Source of the DNA: Candidatus Helarchaeota ASGARD archaeon Hel_GB_B
GTDB lineage: Archaea; Asgardarchaeota; Lokiarchaeia; Helarchaeales; HEL-GB-B
NCBI GenBank assembly: GCA_005191425.1
Contig: SUPR01000136.1
Coordinates: 1 to 7,209, forward strand
DNA: 7,209 nucleotides
Direction of reading: 5' to 3'
Positions within the stretch are counted from its first letter, which is position 1; each line of letters begins with the position of its first letter. A program made the position numbers and the translations under genes. The notes beneath the pieces were generated by a model, which ran no database searches, had not been told where the DNA came from, and saw only the letters and a list, made by a program, of their open reading frames with translations. Shown here one piece after another: positions 1 to 7,202 of this stretch.

Positions 1-1020
1 ATTTTCTGGCTCTTCTATCAAAATAATTCCATTCTTATTTAATATTAATAACGCCAAGATTAACATTTGAGATATAAATTCGTCCCCAAATGATTTTACA
101 TGTACCATTTCTGGATGATTTCTTGTATGCAAATATATTTCACCCTCCGAAGTAATGATATTTTCTATGTAATCATAATTTCTCTTTAACATTGCTAAAT
201 AATCATTAAAATTATTTTTATTTTTTATTATTTTTTTTAATAGTTACTTTAATTTAAAATATGAAATTTCTCCTAAATATTCTATTTCATTTATTTTTTT
301 ATCCGTACCAGTCTTTTTACTGTCTCTAAATGGAATTTTTATTATATCCTTAATTTTTAGAATGCTTTTTAGATATATCTCTTTCATCTCTAAATTATCC
401 TCCACATATCTCTTAATATCATTAATGGAATTCTTTATATTTCTACCACCGCCTAAAAACGCATAATTTTTTATTCCACTTATCTCATTTTTATATGCTA
501 TATAAATCGAAAATTTTTCTAATAACTCCTCTTTTAACATTTCTATTTTTTTATCAATATTTTCCATTATAATTTTGTTATCTGTTTTTATTTTTTTACT
601 TATAAAATTTCTAAGTTCTAACTTAATCTCATTTATAAACAGATTTTTGAATTTCTCTAATATATATGATAACTCTAAACTTCCGACTCTACTTGAAAAT
701 TCTTCCAAACTTTTTGATATAAATAATTCTGATTTTAATCTACCGCCTCTTATACTTATTCTGCAATTATTACTATCATAATTTATAATACTTGCCAGCT
801 CATTAAAGCCACCTCTATTTTTTATTATTTCTTCTAATATACTACCTTTTTTCATCCCATTCCAACAATTCTCTCCATTTATTCCCAATATTAATGACTA
901 TAATATTGAAGATTTCCCCGTATTATTCCGTCCAACAAATATTGTTATTGGTTTCACTTCTTTAATCTCGAATTTGTCTATACACCGATATTTCTCTATT
1001 CTTATTTCTTGTATTTTCAT
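1..1020 (-). pseudogene. ABC-class P-loop ATPase (AAA_15/AAA_21-like, OLD/AbiEii/SMC-like family), interrupted by two in-frame stops; 3' end runs off the window
   Basis: Manual translation from ATG at 1020 gives MKIQEIRIEKYRCIDKFEIKEVKPITIFVGRNNTGKSSIL*SLILGINGENC..., with Walker A GRNNTGKS and TAG at 900-898. The same frame continues through the 244..888 ORF to ...YFKLK* (TAA at 246-244), then LLKKIIKNKNNFNDYLAMLKRNYDYIENIITSEGEIYLHTRNHPEMVHVKSFGDEFISQMLILALLILNKNGIILIEEPEN to base 1. This last piece has a signature-like SFGD and Walker B/D-loop IILIEEPEN. There is no frameshift anywhere. Confidence 0.88.
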
Positions 1021-1078
1021 TTTTAATCATTTATTTATATTCTTTTTTTACTATGTAAATAAAAGATTTTGATTGGAT

Positions 1079-1100
1079 ATGAATTTTGGTAAAAATTCAT
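1079..1100. promoter_or_regulatory. 9-4-9 inverted repeat upstream of the ATPase gene, candidate operator
   Basis: ATGAATTTT (1079-1087) GGTA AAAATTCAT (1092-1100) has perfect arms and lies about 60 bp upstream of the ATG at 1020. Confidence 0.35.
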
Positions 1101-1213
1101 TGTTCGTTTATTTTTTTTCATCTTTTATTATCTTTTATCTAATTTTTTTTGCATTGAATAATGATATATTTTATTCTATCTGTCTTCGTATTAAAATTAT
1201 TCTTATTATAGAT

Positions 1214-1253
1214 TTAAAATCTTGTATATTTTTTATAAATTATTAAAATCTTG
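1214..1253. repeat. 11-bp direct repeat TTAAAATCTTG x2
   Basis: Copies are at 1214-1224 and 1243-1253. The first overlaps a 6-1-6 palindrome, AGATTT-A-AAATCT (1210-1222). The AT-rich background makes chance occurrence possible. Confidence 0.3.
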
Positions 1254-1707
1254 CAATTATTATTATAATAGGGATCTTTTAAGTGGTTATTTTGAAAGAT
1301 ATTTGAAGTATGATAAATTTAATAAAATGGATAATGAGCGCCATAAACGATATAATAGAATTTATTTTTCTTATTATCAGATTTTCAAAAAAAAGAACTC
1401 GGAAAATGTAATTAATTAGGATAAAAGAGGATTATTTTTGATAATAATTGGAGATCATTTATAACATTTAATTACTTTTCTATATTAGATTATATTAATA
1501 GGTATATTAATAATATTTCTTTTCCAGGATATTTTCAGGTTATAATATAAAAAACTAAGAAGTAAATTATATATTAACGAGTATAGGGGGCAATTAAGTG
1601 TTTAAATTATTGATGTATCAGCTTAATCTTAAACTAAAAATGATTAAAAATACCGAATGATACAAAGAGATAAAAATTTAAATAAAATAAGATTTCAAAT
1701 ATTAACA

Positions 1708-1724
1708 AATAAAAGAAAAAATAG
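1708..1724 (-). terminator. Candidate archaeal oligo-U terminator
   Basis: The minus strand reads ...CTATTTTTTCTTTTATT immediately after the stop of the 1728..2261 gene. U-tracts are common in this AT-rich DNA. Confidence 0.3.
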
Positions 1725-1727
1725 AAT

Positions 1728-2261
1728 TTAAAATTTATGTGTAATTTTTTCATTTATAATTTTTTCTGCTTCAAGTGCTCTAATTATTTTTTGAATTTCA
1801 ATTACAGCTTGTGGATAAACCTTCATATATGGAGTTAATCCAGTAAATTGTTCCTCTCTTGTCGTTAAAGTAGGGAGACCTCGCGGTCCAAAATACATTG
1901 TTTCGTTAGTTTTTTGTAGTCCATCTAAATAATTTTTAAGAAATTCAATTTGTTCATCAATTGAGTCCATTTTTGAGATTATTCTTTTAATATTTTCAAG
2001 GTCAAAACCTGGGACTCTTTCACATTTTTTACCGCCTTTTAAGAAACGCAATGCTCGATTTTTGTATAAACATTCGCTATGATATGTTTTAAAGGAGTCG
2101 ACCAGTGCAGATTCAATTCTTTTATTTAATTCTTCGTCAAAATCAAGGCCATTTTCTTCGCATATTTCTTTAAATAATTCAAGATATTTTTTATTAATTT
2201 TTATCTTCAATGCTTCGATTTTTGAATTTTTATCATCATAAATTTCTTCTGAAACTGTCAT
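1728..2261 (-). CDS. Hypothetical protein (177 aa) with a ribbon-helix-helix (CopG/RelB-like) N-terminal region
   Basis: The ORF track gives 1728..2270 from GTG. However, AGGTGA (an archaeal SD-like motif) overlaps that GTG and sits 5 nt before the ATG at 2261, which favours 2261. The segment ALKIKINKKYLELFKEICEENGLDFDEELNKRIESAL has the alternating beta-strand, helix, G-turn, helix pattern of RHH proteins. The C-terminal ~120 aa are unrecognised. Confidence 0.7.
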   Translation of the reverse strand: MTVSEEIYDDKNSKIEALKIKINKKYLELFKEICEENGLDFDEELNKRIESALVDSFKTYHSECLYKNRALRFLKGGKKCERVPGFDLENIKRIISKMDSIDEQIEFLKNYLDGLQKTNETMYFGPRGLPTLTTREEQFTGLTPYMKVYPQAVIEIQKIIRALEAEKIINEKITHKF

Positions 2262-2348
2262 AAATTTCACCTACAAATGAGTTTATTATTCTGATTAAAT
2301 TAAAATCATTAAAGGATTTAAACAATTTGTCTTCACCAACAATACTTA

Positions 2349-2372
2349 TTTTGATAATAATAATTATCAAAA
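2349..2372. promoter_or_regulatory. Perfect 10-4-10 palindrome in the divergent intergenic region, candidate operator
   Basis: TTTTGATAAT (2349-2358) AATA ATTATCAAAA (2363-2372). It lies between the divergent RHH gene and the hdrA-mvh operon. Confidence 0.55.
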
Positions 2373-2398
2373 ATTATTTGATATTAGACAATGAAAAG

Positions 2399-2427
2399 AA
2401 AATTTGTTAAAAAAATTTGTTTAACAA
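2399..2427. repeat. Overlapping direct repeat (AAAATTTGTT x2) and 8-8-8 inverted repeat (TTGTTAAA...TTTAACAA)
   Basis: Direct copies are at 2399-2408 and 2412-2421. The inverted arms are at 2404-2411 and 2420-2427. Confidence 0.35.
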
Positions 2428-2582
2428 TAGAAAAGTAAAATTGTCAAAAACATTTAAAGGAAAAATTTTTTTTATTATTATTTAAAGAAAAAAAGAATTA
2501 TCAAATATGAAAAAAAAAGTAATCAAAAATTGGTTATTATAATAAACAGTAATGTTCATGTGGTATATGCAAAAAATAAAGG

Positions 2583-5117
2583 ATGATAAAAAATATGGAT
2601 ATATATTCGATATTATCTCATCCATTGAGAAGAAAAATTCTATATATTTTGGATAAAGAAGGTTATCTACAATATACTGAATTAATGGAAAGATTAGGAT
2701 TAGAAACAACAGGTCAATTAAATTTTCATTTAAAAAAATTAGGAACGCTTATTAATAAAGACAATAAATCTTATTTTCTCACGAAAGAAGGAAAAATGAT
2801 AGTAAAACTAATGAATTTAAATGAGATGCTAATATCTGGAGAAGATATTGAATATTTAAATCCCAAATTTACCGAAATGAATAGGATTGGCGTGATAATT
2901 TGTAGCTGCAATACGCAAGTTGAAGAGCTTATTGATATTAAAGCCTTAAAAAATTATCTAACTAAAATAAAAAATGTAATTTCAGTAAGAATTTTTGATA
3001 CATTATGTCAAGAGAAAAATTTACTCATGATAACAAACTGGGTAAAAGATAATTTTATTAATAAAATAGTGATAGCCGCATGTTCACCAAGGTCCCATCT
3101 ACATGCTTTTGAACGAATTTTTGAGAGTATAGATAAATATAATATAGAAATTGCTAATATAAGAGAACAGTGTTGTTGGGTACATAAAGGTAATTCTAAA
3201 CAGGCGCTTAAAAAAGCTCAACTTTTAATAGAAGCTGCGATTGAAAGAATATCCTTACAAACAAAATTAAATCTTAAAAAAGTTGAATTAATTAGAAGCG
3301 TAGCGATTTTAGGCGGCGGAATTGCAGGAATGACATTGGCATTAAACCTTGCAAGAGCCGGAATTAAAGTTTATTTAATAGAGAAAGCACCTACTTTAGG
3401 AGGAAAAGTAGCGCGTTGGGAACATATTTATGGTGTAGAAGATTGTTCTATCTGCTTTTTATCCGAATTAATAAGAGAATTAGCTAAAAATCCAAATATT
3501 GAAATTTTTACTAATACGACAATTGAACGAGTATCTGGCGAATTTGGAAATTTTACACTTGAGTTATTAAAAAAGCCTCGTTTTGTTGATGAAAAGCGCT
3601 GCACTGGATGTAAACAATGTATTGAAATATGTCCTATTGAAAAAAAAGACCAATATGAGTTTGGACTTAAAAATAGAAAGTTAATTTATATTCCATTTAT
3701 CCATTCATATCCTTATGCAGCTGTTATTGATGAAGAAGATATAATTAATTGTATTCATTGTAGGACATGCGAGAATATTTGTGTTAATAAAGCAATAAAT
3801 CTAAACCAGCAACCTGAAAAACTCCAAATTAAAGTCGGGATTAAAGTTATTGCAATAGGAGCAGATCTCTATACAAATTTAAAAGAATACCATTATGACC
3901 CTAAAAGCGATATAATTACGTCTGCAGAATTTGAAAGGATATTAGCGAGTGATGGACCAACTTCAGGTAATCTTATTAGGCTTTCCAATAAAAAGCCTCC
4001 TAAAACTATTTCAATAATTCAAACAGTTTGTAATGAAAATTACATTGGCGAATTTTGCGATTATCTTGCTTTAAAATATTTAGAAACAATAAAAATAAGA
4101 TGCCCTGAATGCAAGGTTAATATTTTTTATGAAATAAACAAGAGAAAAAATAAATTCTTATTAGACCCCATGGATAAAAGAGTACATTATGTAAAAAAGA
4201 TTGAAATTTTAAAAAGTGGAAATAAAAAATTCGTTATTACTGACGAGAATAAATATGAAAGCGATTTAATTATATTAAATATTAATTTAATTCCTAATAA
4301 AGACTTACCCAATCTTAGAAAAACTTTTGATTTTACTGTAAATGAAAATGGGTTTATGAGCAAAGAAACTTTGGCATCAGGAATTTATGGGATTGGAACA
4401 ATAATGGGACCTTTAAGTTATCAAAGTACGGTCTCTCAAGCTAATAAATTAGCAATTGAAATTATTTCGTTATTATCAAAGGATTATGTAATAGCTGAAC
4501 CCAGCGGAATTGAAATTAATGAAGATAAATGTGGTTATTGTGGGCTATGTACATTATCATGTCATTACAATGCAATTTCTATTGAAGAAAACCGAATAAA
4601 TGTTGATAGATTCAAATGTAAAGGTTGCGGGACATGTGTTAGTATTTGTCCCACTGGCGCTATTAAAATGAATATTGATATGAATGAGAAAATTCTTAAA
4701 ACAATTGAAGTTTATTCAAAATATCCTGAAAAACCAAAAATTATTGCGTTTTGTTGTCAATCATGTGGTTATGCAGCAGCAGATGAAGCAGGACTTAAAA
4801 AAATAGCATATACCCCCAATATATTTATCGTTAAAGTCCCCTGTACTGGTAGAGTTGATACTTTTTTTATTCTAAAATCATTTGAACTAGGATTTGATGG
4901 GGTTATGGTAATTGGATGTAAACCAAATTCTTGTAGATTTATTAATGGGGCGGAAACCATATCTAAAAAGATACAAATGATTAAAGAAGTATTTGGAGAT
5001 AAGATTAAAGATCATTTAATTCACAAATCTTTAAATGCAGTCGAAGGGAATATCTTTGCTAAAACTGTAAACCAGTTTTATGAAAAATTAAAGGAGGAAG
5101 AATTAAATGAAGCTTAA
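2583..5117 (+). CDS. hdrA: Fusion protein: winged-helix (ArsR-like) DNA-binding domain + heterodisulfide reductase subunit A-like flavo-iron-sulfur protein + MvhD/FlpD [2Fe-2S] domain
   Basis: 844-aa ORF; the true start may be the ATG at 2595, after SD-like GGATGAT. It contains wHTH ILSHPLRRKIL...GQLNFHLKKL...YFLTKEG; HdrA N-domain RIGVIICSC...AACSPRSH...ANIREQCCWVH; Rossmann GGGIAG; DCSIC; inserted ferredoxin CTGCKQCIEICP/CIHCRTCENIC; EFERIL..GPT; C-terminal ferredoxin CGYCGLCTLSC/CKGCGTCVSICP; and MvhD KIIAFCCQSCGYAAAD...VPCTGRVD...DGVMVIGCKPNSC. Confidence 0.93.
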   Translation: MIKNMDIYSILSHPLRRKILYILDKEGYLQYTELMERLGLETTGQLNFHLKKLGTLINKDNKSYFLTKEGKMIVKLMNLNEMLISGEDIEYLNPKFTEMNRIGVIICSCNTQVEELIDIKALKNYLTKIKNVISVRIFDTLCQEKNLLMITNWVKDNFINKIVIAACSPRSHLHAFERIFESIDKYNIEIANIREQCCWVHKGNSKQALKKAQLLIEAAIERISLQTKLNLKKVELIRSVAILGGGIAGMTLALNLARAGIKVYLIEKAPTLGGKVARWEHIYGVEDCSICFLSELIRELAKNPNIEIFTNTTIERVSGEFGNFTLELLKKPRFVDEKRCTGCKQCIEICPIEKKDQYEFGLKNRKLIYIPFIHSYPYAAVIDEEDIINCIHCRTCENICVNKAINLNQQPEKLQIKVGIKVIAIGADLYTNLKEYHYDPKSDIITSAEFERILASDGPTSGNLIRLSNKKPPKTISIIQTVCNENYIGEFCDYLALKYLETIKIRCPECKVNIFYEINKRKNKFLLDPMDKRVHYVKKIEILKSGNKKFVITDENKYESDLIILNINLIPNKDLPNLRKTFDFTVNENGFMSKETLASGIYGIGTIMGPLSYQSTVSQANKLAIEIISLLSKDYVIAEPSGIEINEDKCGYCGLCTLSCHYNAISIEENRINVDRFKCKGCGTCVSICPTGAIKMNIDMNEKILKTIEVYSKYPEKPKIIAFCCQSCGYAAADEAGLKKIAYTPNIFIVKVPCTGRVDTFFILKSFELGFDGVMVIGCKPNSCRFINGAETISKKIQMIKEVFGDKIKDHLIHKSLNAVEGNIFAKTVNQFYEKLKEEELNEA
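2595..2830 (+). other. Winged helix-turn-helix domain (ArsR/HTH_20-like) of the fusion protein
   Basis: MDIYSILSHPLRRKILYILDKEGYLQYTELMERLGLETTGQLNFHLKKLGTLINKDNKSYFLTKEGK matches the archaeal ArsR-like pattern (LSHPxRRxIL; LxxHLxxL; YxLTxxG). The end boundary is approximate. Confidence 0.85.
2877..4730 (+). other. hdrA: HdrA-like region (N-terminal Fe-S domain, FAD domain, inserted and C-terminal 2x[4Fe-4S] domains)
   Basis: It begins MNRIGVIICSC at 2877. GxGxxG is at 3312-3329, and CxxCxxCxxxC motifs start at 3600, 3750, 4530 and 4617. Confidence 0.9.
4731..5117 (+). other. mvhD: MvhD/FlpD ([2Fe-2S], methyl-viologen-reducing hydrogenase delta) domain
   Basis: KPKIIAFCCQSCGYAAADEAG, PCTGRVD, DGVMVIGC-x4-C and NAVEGNIFAKTVNQF match the MvhD consensus with the Cys ligands intact. 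Confidence 0.92.
5092..5097 (+). promoter_or_regulatory. Shine-Dalgarno site for the hydrogenase small subunit
   Basis: AGGAGG lies 9 nt upstream of the ATG at 5107. The genes overlap by 11 nt (5107-5117), consistent with translational coupling. Confidence 0.7.
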
Positions 5118-5853
5118 ATTTTCAATTATTTCTTTAACTTCATGCTCTGGTTGCATTAGCGCATTAATATCATTAGATATTTTTGAGGATTTCTTAGAAA
5201 AAGTTGATTTAGTCTATTTTCCATTTATAATGGACGAAAAACGAATCGAAGAGTGTGATGTATTTTTAATAGAAGGGTGTGTTATTGACGATGAACAAAT
5301 TAAATTATTAAAACAAATAAGAAGAAAAGCAAGAAAAGTGGTTGCATTTGGGACATGCGCAGCATTTGGAGGAATATTAAATTTATCAGAAGATATAAAT
5401 GGAGAACCAATTTCTAATTATATTGAAATTGATGGAATAATCCCGGGCTGCCCACCTCCTTTAAAAATATTGGGCAATTCACTTATTAATTTATTAGAAA
5501 ATAAGAAAATTGTACTTCCAGAAAAGAATTTATGTTATGACTGTCCTCTTAAGGAAAATATTCAGAAAAATTTTGAAATTTCTATTGATGAATTAATGGA
5601 CGAAGGGTATAAGACGGAGAAAGTAATACCTAAATGTTTCTTGGAAAAAAATATACTGTGTTTAGGACCTATTACAAGAGCTGGTTGTGATTGTAGCTGT
5701 ATAAAATTAGGTATACCTTGTGAAGGATGTATGGGGCCACTTAAACAGGATTATACCTCAACAATAATAAATTTTCTTAGTTTACTTAATCTTTCAGATG
5801 ATTTAAGAAAATATAAAAGCATATTTTTTCGTTTTTCAAAACCTAATTTATAA
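5107..5853 (+). CDS. mvhG: Group 3 [NiFe]-hydrogenase small (Fe-S) subunit, MvhG/VhuG-like
   Basis: Proximal cluster ligands CSGC, GTCAAFGG and PGCPP are present, as are the medial/distal ligands CYDC, KCFL, LCLGPITRAGC and CIKLGIPCEGCMGP. There is no Tat leader, so it is cytoplasmic. Confidence 0.9.
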   Translation: MKLKFSIISLTSCSGCISALISLDIFEDFLEKVDLVYFPFIMDEKRIEECDVFLIEGCVIDDEQIKLLKQIRRKARKVVAFGTCAAFGGILNLSEDINGEPISNYIEIDGIIPGCPPPLKILGNSLINLLENKKIVLPEKNLCYDCPLKENIQKNFEISIDELMDEGYKTEKVIPKCFLEKNILCLGPITRAGCDCSCIKLGIPCEGCMGPLKQDYTSTIINFLSLLNLSDDLRKYKSIFFRFSKPNL

Positions 5854-5864
5854 AGTTGATAAAA

Positions 5865-7202
5865 ATGAGTGTTGAAATAGATTTATGTACAAGAGTAGAA
5901 GGACAGGGACGAATATATTATAGCTTCCAGAATGGACAAATTTCAAGTGTAAATTTTGAGGTATATGGATTTAGAAATTTTGAAAATCTTCTAGTAAATA
6001 AAAAATTAATTGAAGTCCCAAGAATTACTTCAAGAATATGCGGATTATGTCATGTTGCTCAAAGTATTGTAAGTTGTAAAGCAATTGAAAACATGTTTAA
6101 TATTACACCTTCAAAATATACAGTCTTATTAAGGCGTCTTTTAATGACTGGCGATCATATTAAGTCTCATATTGCACATATCTTTTTTCAAACATTCTCA
6201 GACCTTTTATATATATTACGAGAGGAGAAAAAAAATATTGCCCCAAATAAAATAATCAAATATGACCCAGAAATAACATCACATGCTTTCAATTTAATTA
6301 AATATAGTTCAGCCATTGTAAATATCCTTGGTGGTAGGTTCATACACCCTATCACGCCTGCAATTGGCGGCTTTTATTATACACCATCTAAAAGGAACAT
6401 AGAATCACTTAAAAAATATTTTGCAGAATCATTTAACAGCTTGAAAATAATAATAATAAAATTTATAGATTTATTCCATAAAATCTCACCACCTGATGAA
6501 TTCTCATTTGGAAATCCTGTTTTTATGGGGTTAAACAATGACTCTTATTTTGATATTTATGAAGGTATAATAAGAATTAAAGATAATGATGGGATATTAT
6601 CTTATTTTGATGTAAATAAATATACCGACTATTTAAAAAGAGAAGACAGGGCAGAAATATATATCAATTTTAATGGACAAAAAGAATTATTTGTTGGCCC
6701 AATTGGTCGGTATAACATTGTAGAAAATTATGGAAATGGTATTGTAGATAACTATTTAGATTATTTTAATAAAACTTGGAAATCCAGTTTGCTTTTCTCT
6801 AATTTTTTAGCTTTATTCGAATTATTGATTTTAATCGATCAAGGAATATCCATCTTAAATGATAAAAAATTAACTAGACCTGAACCGACTAATTCAACGA
6901 ACATTATAAAAAAGAGAGAAGGTATTGGCGTTTTGGAAGCTCCAAGAGGGCTTTTAATACATGATTATAAAGTAAATGAAAATAAAAACATTTTAGACAA
7001 AGCTAGGCTTTTTATCCCCACGGAGATGAATATTCCTTTAATAAATAAAATACTCACCCGATATTGTAAGAATTTTTACTCTACAACTCAAGATTTAGAT
7101 AGAATGAAATATAATGCACAAATTATATTGAGAAGTTTTGATCCTTGTATATCTTGTGCAACACATTTTGTTAATAAAATTGATTGTAAAAGATGTGAAT
7201 AA
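5865..7202 (+). CDS. mvhA: Group 3 [NiFe]-hydrogenase large (catalytic) subunit, MvhA-like
   Basis: It has TRVEG, L1 RICGLC (6033-6050), GGRFIHP, VGPIGRYN, EAPRGLLIHDY, PTEMN and L2 RSFDPCISCATH, with all four Ni/Fe Cys ligands. The ATG at 5865 (after SD-like AAGTTGAT) is preferred over the TTG at 5856. Confidence 0.92.
   Translation: MSVEIDLCTRVEGQGRIYYSFQNGQISSVNFEVYGFRNFENLLVNKKLIEVPRITSRICGLCHVAQSIVSCKAIENMFNITPSKYTVLLRRLLMTGDHIKSHIAHIFFQTFSDLLYILREEKKNIAPNKIIKYDPEITSHAFNLIKYSSAIVNILGGRFIHPITPAIGGFYYTPSKRNIESLKKYFAESFNSLKIIIIKFIDLFHKISPPDEFSFGNPVFMGLNNDSYFDIYEGIIRIKDNDGILSYFDVNKYTDYLKREDRAEIYINFNGQKELFVGPIGRYNIVENYGNGIVDNYLDYFNKTWKSSLLFSNFLALFELLILIDQGISILNDKKLTRPEPTNSTNIIKKREGIGVLEAPRGLLIHDYKVNENKNILDKARLFIPTEMNIPLINKILTRYCKNFYSTTQDLDRMKYNAQIILRSFDPCISCATHFVNKIDCKRCE

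Follow-up and report, generated by a model that had tools for sequence, protein, structure and literature searches.

The window analyzed in this work, a contig of 7,209 bases that was taken whole from a 3.5-Mb Asgard archaeal genome, carries three genes that would form one module: a flavin/iron-sulfur subunit in which a winged helix-turn-helix (wHTH) domain is fused to HdrA and MvhD, followed by the [NiFe] hydrogenase subunits MvhG and MvhA. The contig stops after mvhA, and the order of the three genes was kept at every related locus with enough flanking sequence. The fused protein, whose nearest named homologues are labelled Helarchaeota and Promethearchaeota, was found to lack three of the four cysteine ligands of HA4, the [4Fe-4S] cluster in the thioredoxin-reductase domain of HdrA, and all its other cofactor cysteines are in place. 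The ATG at position 2595 (MDIY...) is probably the true start of its gene, because the relatives and an identical 840-residue database entry begin at MDIY.

Pfam searches of the fused protein returned DUF7347, a flavin adenine dinucleotide (FAD)/NAD(P) Rossmann domain, four Fer4 motifs and FlpD. A complete HdrA region spans residues 98 to 711 approximately and matches chain 8rvu_a over this length with an E value of 1e-117; the HdrA subunits of 8rvu, 5odc and 7bkb were matched at E values of 1e-117 to 1e-90. The AlphaFold model of the protein has a mean predicted local distance difference test (pLDDT) score of 73.5, with residues 486-488 below 50. Its fold is that of HdrA, with a Z score of 33.8 to 8rvu_A and of 33-34 across the solved HdrA structures, and its core superimposes on 8rwn_A with a Z score of 33.7 and a root-mean-square deviation of 3.6 Å over 390 residues. 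The wHTH appears in the model as a helix-helix-helix-hairpin at residues 14-66 (pLDDT approximately 80), which is predicted to be the DNA-binding domain. At the other end, the MvhD chains of 5odc (E value of 6e-24) and 8rvu match the C-terminal domain at E values of 1e-23 to 1e-24, and its cysteines C725, C728, C754, C779 and C784 are all invariant. The comparisons below draw largely on the 119 closest database homologues, all from Asgard archaea, about 849 amino acids long and 60-79% identical over the full length; DUF7347 was found in 114 of them, and more distant members of the wHTH-fused family carry it too.

HdrA possesses six [4Fe-4S] clusters: four in two ferredoxin domains, one N-terminal and one in the thioredoxin-reductase domain. 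The fused protein has the N-terminal cluster domain with the C197-type ligand as well as the inserted and the C-terminal 2x[4Fe-4S] ferredoxin domains, and outside HA4 no cofactor cysteine is missing or varies among 56 aligned family members. These cysteines are C107, C109, C142, C167, C288 and C291 on the N-terminal side, the eight cysteines of the inserted ferredoxin domain (C340/343/346/350 and C390/393/396/400) and, in the C-terminal ferredoxin domain with its eight cysteines, C650/653/656/660 and C679/685/689. The selectivity of the loss, which the original prediction had asserted, is thereby borne out. The protein is HdrA by sequence, by fold and by six of seven cofactor sites, and departs from it at HA4 and in having no HdrBC partner in the operon. 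At about 12 loci with enough flank, no hdrBC or CCG-domain gene was found in the operon.

The segment at residues 479-498 reads IQTVCNENYIGEFCDYLALK. When aligned with 5odc_A by HMMER, residues E356, C386, C399, C403, C404 and K409, numbered by counting along the printed alignment, pair with E451, T481, I488, C492, D493 and K498, and an independent MAFFT alignment with 48 relatives gave the same pairing. We take C386, C399, C403 and C404 to be the ligands of the thioredoxin-reductase-domain cluster, by elimination. Codon mapping places the six residues of the fused protein at 3933, 4023, 4044, 4056, 4059 and 4074, and three further cysteines of the region, C483, C507 and C510, at 4029, 4101 and 4110. 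Both these positions and the residue numbers of 5odc_A proved to be those of the original prediction. Ligands 1 and 2 are joined by a loop that is shorter by 6-7 residues than its counterpart in canonical HdrA, so that the equivalent of ligand 2 could be either I488 or G489, and residues 484-491 of the fused protein contain no cysteine. The two alignments and this gap agree that four ligands are no longer positioned for the cluster: the four-cysteine site is absent from the protein, and ligands 2-4 are absent from its clade. Contigs covering 3700-4400 were available from three runs of three studies, two being identical and one having a single different letter, and the degenerate sequence is therefore not an assembly error. 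A restored NAD(P)-binding site in the emptied pocket was considered and rejected, as residues 479-490 contain no glycine-rich GxGxxG/A motif. The pair E356/K409 has been used as a mark of the bifurcating flavin and of bifurcating HdrA (PMC12054007, PMC9430772), and its equivalents E451 and K498 were kept in 119 of 119 homologues.

Ligands 2, 3 and 4 are found in none of the 119 homologues. Position 481 is occupied by Cys in 38 and by Glu in 44 of them, and otherwise by Asn, Gly, Asp or Ser; at position 493, 105 have an acidic residue (Asp or Glu), and the residues at 481, 488 and 492 are chemically unrelated across the clade. The genome from which the window comes encodes at least nine further HdrA modules, all with C...C...CC at this site, so that the window copy alone is degenerate; among them is an HdrA-MvhD fusion without a wHTH (contig C107, 37% identity) that keeps the motif. 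A search with the segment alone returned exclusively Asgard proteins, nearly all of which carry DUF7347, the exceptions being truncated entries. In a broader survey of 150 representatives of a library of 1.8 billion proteins, unfused HdrA and HdrA-MvhD proteins read E-CCCC-K in almost all cases. In about nine tandem HdrA proteins of this survey, one module is half-degenerate at this site (for example, C-x-C-S) and the lysine is mostly lost too, and a few other proteins have partly degenerate sites. Ordinary single-module HdrA was thus not found to share the degeneracy. There is a precedent for HdrA paralogues that have lost Fe-S ligands (PMC9012536). The HA4 loss is real and selected rather than noise.

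The original prediction had also held that the third ligand is retained as Cys and that a new CxxC has been gained, and had asked whether the cysteines encoded at 4029, 4056, 4101 and 4110 can form a site; these ideas fared less well. C483 and C492 each occur in 1 of the 119 homologues, and the nearest relatives have Asn or Arg at position 492; retention of C492 from the ancestral site is doubtful, and the residue would be at best a sporadic relic. C507 was found in three homologues, which are the three nearest relatives (RCPEC, RCTNC and RCAKC), and the CPEC motif does not extend beyond the four closest sequences. C510 is shared by 111 of the 119 homologues; this Cys also occurs in the HA4-retaining P0140 group and therefore predates the HA4 loss, and solved HdrA has Thr at the position. 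In the model, a strand (475-479), a loop, a helix (490-506) and a further strand (511-517) form the first beta-alpha-beta unit of the Rossmann-like subdomain. C492 is located at the N-terminal end of the 17-residue helix and C507 and C510 just past its C-terminal end, so that they would be separated by about 22 Å (15 residues x 1.5 Å), too far for a shared cluster. On this model, C483, C492 and C507 would rebuild no cluster. The four cysteines outside cofactor motifs nevertheless all fall within 28 residues, which by random placement has a probability of about 1e-4, calculated post hoc, and across the clade Cys is 11-fold enriched in residues 478-512 over other non-motif positions. In residues 502-510 (window positions 4086-4112), 23 of 119 homologues have Cys at column 502; counting column 507 as well, about one in four members of the clade has a second Cys, located 3-8 residues before the conserved C510.

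A further change was found in the partner hydrogenase. At all 12 loci of the crown clade where the L1 motif of MvhA was read, its final histidine is replaced by Gln; the basal and Jord-type loci have His. The Gln lies four residues after the second N-terminal Ni cysteine, as in group 2b hydrogenases, and we take this to be the position of Q67 in HoxC. Membership of group 2b by sequence was not found, and the best matches are MvhA (5odc_F, E value of 7e-55) and other group 3 enzymes. A Gln in place of the L1 histidine has been described as characteristic of H2-sensing regulatory hydrogenases (PMC5665086). No HoxJ-type or other conserved kinase gene was found beside the operon at the loci read. 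As to other features of MvhA, the window protein alone among the loci read has TRVEGQG (5889-5909), with Gln for the His of TRVEGHG in the relatives, and it possesses 12 residues beyond the C-terminal DPCISCATH (7164-7202). The MvhA proteins of L010, L012 and L013 stop exactly at the His of this motif and therefore have no C-terminal extension to cleave in maturation.

The order in which these traits arose can be read from the family as a whole. The distant wHTH-fused proteins P0140, P0150, P0152, P0154, P0157-P0159 and P0162 combine DUF7347 with a complete C...C...CC, and the loss is thus not common to all wHTH-fused homologues. In a maximum-likelihood tree that was built leaving out the columns of the trait itself, from a quick search and with several long basal branches, the wHTH-fused family forms a single clade (Shimodaira-Hasegawa-like approximate likelihood ratio test support of 100) with basal sequences that are CCCC. 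The 26 HA4-less sequences form one clade (support of 100), and the Jord-type clade retains the third Cys alone; the fork among the basal, Jord-type and HA4-less groups carries no support either way, which leaves one or two HA4 losses. Among genome loci within the phylum, families f13, f8 and f17 read CCCC, f19 has a single Cys left, and both f2 and the genome of the window are HA4-less. The wHTH fusion came first and the HA4 loss later, because basal wHTH-fused lineages keep all four cysteines. The Jord-type lineage has no HA4 and still has the MvhA His, and the two changes are therefore separable; the sequence of events is accordingly fusion, HA4 loss and then the His-to-Gln change in MvhA. 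That HA4 loss, Gln and taxonomy vary together goes back to one or two evolutionary events and does not amount to independent replicates.

A candidate operator precedes the operon. The pattern TTGAYAA-N6-TTRTCAA, written from the window and from locus L009 (9755-9774), matches once in the window, against 0.04 matches expected, and exact matches were found before the fused gene in seven loci outside this derivation, namely, L012, L022, L023, L107-L109 and L111. The palindrome lies 89-246 nucleotides ahead of the fused gene. Eight more loci have it with one mismatch, loci of family f8 have a GACAA-N6-TTGTC core, and such one-mismatch or core palindromes occur in HA4-retaining lineages; approximately 100 unrelated loci contained none. 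DNA binding by the wHTH, HA4-retaining members included, is likely because the palindrome is conserved before the operon in most lineages.

The wider gene neighborhood was tried as a discriminator between HA4-retaining and HA4-less members and rejected, since the operons of both are without hdrBC and HdrBC-like clusters are found near both. Such clusters are located 0.5-8 kb away at some loci, namely, the HA4-less L010 and the HA4-retaining L014-L018. A protein of about 330-565 amino acids, in which the N-terminal domain of methylene-tetrahydromethanopterin dehydrogenase (Mpt_N, MtdB-like) is joined to a Rossmann domain, accompanies the module. Its gene comes fourth in the operon in the basal families f13 and f8 (approximately 565 amino acids) and is a divergent neighbor in the crown-clade loci L010, L012 and L013.

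The reading that we favor, with modest confidence, is that of a self-regulating, HdrBC-independent hydrogenase-flavoprotein from which HA4 was lost by ligand substitution. HA4 would be the only relay from the flavin to HdrC and HdrB, and its loss would leave no electron transfer to an HdrBC partner. Without HA4, the gap from FAD to HdrC would exceed the physiological tunnelling limit of approximately 14 Å. The cluster of the thioredoxin-reductase domain has been described as the exit route from the flavin towards HdrBC (PMC9012536), and HA4 has been placed on the route from FAD to HdrBC (PMC13580544, PMC12350162). Of the earlier suggestion that the electron path through this cluster is cut or rewired, the first half holds for the branch to HdrBC, since HA4 is that route, and rewiring through new cysteines is disfavored. 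The remaining chain would run from the [NiFe] site through MvhG and the [2Fe-2S] cluster of MvhD to FAD, and on to the N-terminal and ferredoxin-domain clusters that would face ferredoxin. A third redox partner would then react at the flavin or at the neighboring CSIC dithiol; it could be the co-inherited Mpt_N/Rossmann protein, which is a possible candidate, or a diffusible hydride carrier. Autoregulation would follow from binding of the wHTH to the palindrome before the operon, and the module would in this way report on itself. A catalytic role is probably retained because the E/K pair, used as the signature of the bifurcating flavin, is invariant.

Several points weigh against this reading. 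Strict retention of the E/K pair in a protein without a high-potential exit would make sense only with a third partner, for which there are no more than candidates, and a Gln of the sensor type in MvhA speaks for signalling and not for turnover. Coupling to HdrBC in trans is possible for the HA4-retaining members, given the nearby HdrBC-like clusters, and the distances between the cysteines were derived from predicted secondary structure only. That the module is instead a dedicated H2 or redox sensor, as the original prediction had proposed, in which the hydrogenase would set the redox state of HdrA and so gate DNA binding by the wHTH without net metabolic electron flow, seems to us a good deal less probable. 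HA4 would in this case have been lost since no acceptor branch was needed, and such a role would suit a wHTH that is fused in every member, the conserved palindrome and an L1 Gln throughout the crown-clade loci read, as in regulatory hydrogenases (PMC5665086). It would also suit the several partner MvhA proteins in which nothing follows the C-terminal His, the second, different [NiFe] large subunit of module-bearing genomes and the single module copy that these genomes have as a rule. However, basal members with intact HA4 and His also have the wHTH and a related palindrome, so that these traits do not mark the loss, and the Jord-type lineage separates the loss from the change in MvhA. Furthermore, the E/K pair and both ferredoxin domains, i.e., the exit to ferredoxin, are invariant and not obviously needed by a pure sensor, MvhA groups with the 3c enzymes rather than with the 2b sensors, and no kinase or signalling partner is conserved nearby. 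More tentative still is a specific form of this idea, an H2-responsive transcription factor in which the hydrogenase would reduce the bifurcation-type flavin of an HdrA scaffold that has lost its exit to HdrBC; the redox or conformational state of this scaffold would then move the winged helix on or off its palindromic operator. The N-terminal domain of HdrA, to which the wHTH is attached, belongs to a mobile arm in the solved complexes. If this proposal were true, the series of fusion, HA4 loss and His-to-Gln change would document how an enzyme was turned into a sensor.

Persistence of bifurcation to HdrBC is improbable. It would need a cluster rebuilt from C483, C492 and D493 with C507 and C510, or from non-cysteine ligands, or else an HdrC that docks near the flavin. 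Asp can ligate [4Fe-4S] clusters, and the crowding of the non-motif cysteines and the 11-fold enrichment described above count in its favor, but of the columns concerned (483, 492, 507 and 510) only the last is conserved as Cys, and that Cys already occurs in HA4-retaining members, with Thr in its place in solved HdrA. The modelled helix would hold C492 apart from C507 and C510, and a site in use is hard to reconcile with unrelated residues at 481, 488 and 492 across the clade. Relaxed selection on a decaying paralogue, for which redundancy with the nine or more further HdrA modules encoded in this genome would be a plausible setting, is very improbable: no interruption is present in the reading frame, the palindrome and the operon of three genes are conserved, identity over the full length is high across many Asgard lineages with the other cofactor residues invariant, and the HA4-less sequences form one old clade.

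In the methanogen MvhAGD-HdrABC complex (5odc, 8rvu, 7bkb), HdrA has the same domain order, the same FAD site with E356 and K409, the same CSIC, the same four ferredoxin-type clusters and the same partners MvhD, MvhG and MvhA. In contrast to it, the window protein is without three of the four HA4 ligands, as most of its clade is without ligands 2-4, has the shorter loop between ligands 1 and 2, is fused to a wHTH and to MvhD and has no hdrBC in its operon; it would work least like methanogen HdrA on the high-potential side. Type Ia HdrA and HdrA2 of Methanosarcina (PMC12054007, PMC5296606) share the fusion of MvhD at the C terminus of HdrA, but they keep C..C..CC, work with HdrB2C2 and have no wHTH. 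Another example of a link to known systems is that of the HdrA paralogues and tandem HdrA of anaerobic methanotrophic archaea, which have likewise lost individual Fe-S ligand sets (PMC9012536). In tandem HdrA of about 1000-1275 amino acids with a half-degenerate module, however, K409 is mostly lost as well and the second module is intact, whereas the window protein has a single module that keeps both E and K. The group 2b HoxBC-HoxJ system of Ralstonia/Cupriavidus shares the large-subunit Gln for the L1 His and the link of a hydrogenase to gene control, but the hydrogenase of the window is of the 3c (Mvh) type, basal members of its family have His, and the signal would pass through a wHTH-fused flavoprotein and not through a histidine kinase. 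Finally, sHdrA of Hyphomicrobium denitrificans (6tjr) is a non-bifurcating relative with an HdrA-like thioredoxin-reductase core (Z score of 23.3). It presumably keeps one [4Fe-4S] cluster in this domain and has no ferredoxin domains, which is the reverse of what is found here.

A literature search retrieved no description of an Asgard HdrA-wHTH fusion or of HA4 loss, most subscription journals being outside its coverage. Asgard group 3c hydrogenase genes are routinely read as a bifurcating or confurcating MvhADG-HdrABC complex (PMC7015854, PMC11291895), a reading on which syntrophy models of eukaryote origin lean. As far as can be told from sequence, this widespread module could not work like the methanogen enzyme of the usual annotation: it has an HdrA without HA4 and with a predicted DNA-binding domain, both in the class of the window genome and in Jord-type lineages, and its function must therefore be a different one. 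Possible roles are those of a hydrogenase that is independent of HdrBC and uses another partner, of a "trigger enzyme" that regulates itself and of an H2 sensor. HA4-intact members, HA4-less members and HA4-less members with Gln in MvhA form a natural series of ready variants for work on the high-potential branch and on the roles of the E/K pair in bifurcation. The coordinates of all features are compiled in Table 1.

Table 1. Features of the window and of related loci. Residue numbers refer to the fused protein; positions are those of the window unless a locus is named.
Feature	Position	Strand	Basis or remark
wHTH(DUF7347)-HdrA-MvhD fusion gene	2583..5117	+	844 amino acids; open reading frame list, translation, Pfam, matches to solved HdrA
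Winged-helix domain (DUF7347, ArsR-like), residues 6-76	2598..2810	+	Pfam PF24038, E 5.7e-12
FAD-binding GGGIAG, residues 244-249	3312..3329	+	G244, G245, G246 and G249 invariant; aligns with GGGVAG of solved HdrA
CSIC (C288/C291), equivalent to C194/C197 of 5odc_A	3444..3455	+	HMMER alignment; both Cys invariant
E451, aligned with E356, which partners the lysine at flavin N5	3933..3935	+	Alignment, codon mapping; E in 119/119 homologues
Degenerate HA4 [4Fe-4S] segment, residues 479-498	4017..4076	+	Alignment to 5odc_A; K498 equivalent to K409
CPEC (C507, C510), end of helix 490-506, ahead of strand 511-517	4101..4112	+	Translation; model
MvhD/FlpD [2Fe-2S] domain, residues 720-838	4740..5096	+	Pfam PF02662, E 6.5e-33
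MvhG-like [NiFe] hydrogenase small subunit	5107..5853	+	Pfam Oxidored_q6, E 4e-21; overlaps end of fused gene
MvhA-like [NiFe] hydrogenase large subunit	5856..7202	+	Best PDB match MvhA 5odc_F, E 7e-55
MvhA L1 motif RICGLCHVAQ	6033-6062	+	Ends in Gln, not His; 5odc_F reads RICGICQVAH
Palindrome TTGATAATAATAATTATCAA	2351..2370	.	244 nucleotides upstream of the start at MDIY; putative operator for the fused wHTH
Palindrome at other loci	L012 9769-9788; L022 5786-5805; L023 5912-5931; L107-L109; L111 104-123		
Mpt_N/Rossmann genes	L113 8728-10422 (-); L115 8173-9870 (-); L010 1-811; L012 7271-8269; L013 7257-8942		

Some further observations concern hydrogenases, paralogues and neighboring genes. 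The cultured Lokiarchaeon has been stated to have a single hydrogenase (PMC7015854); an argument from this statement was considered and set aside as not usable either way, since the fused gene and its MvhA type are both absent from G196, a genome of the same class that consists of one 4.4-Mb contig. Four full-length HdrA paralogues in the genome of the window each have two in-frame TGA codons (C122:6665-8557, C26:48384-50327, C167:172-2073 and C41:3802-5736), which are probably selenocysteine codons; selenocysteine has been reported for Asgard HdrA. One Lokiarchaeial contig (L013) contains two copies of the fused gene (821-3412 and 10001-12532) that are 7 kb apart, the first with mvhG and mvhA behind it and the second followed by a tRNA synthetase gene. 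In the window, the reverse strand at 1728-2270 encodes, divergently to the operon, a protein of 180 amino acids without a Pfam match, which is unrelated to the upstream genes at more distant loci and 72% identical to the product of its positional counterpart in the nearest relative (L009 9132-9665).

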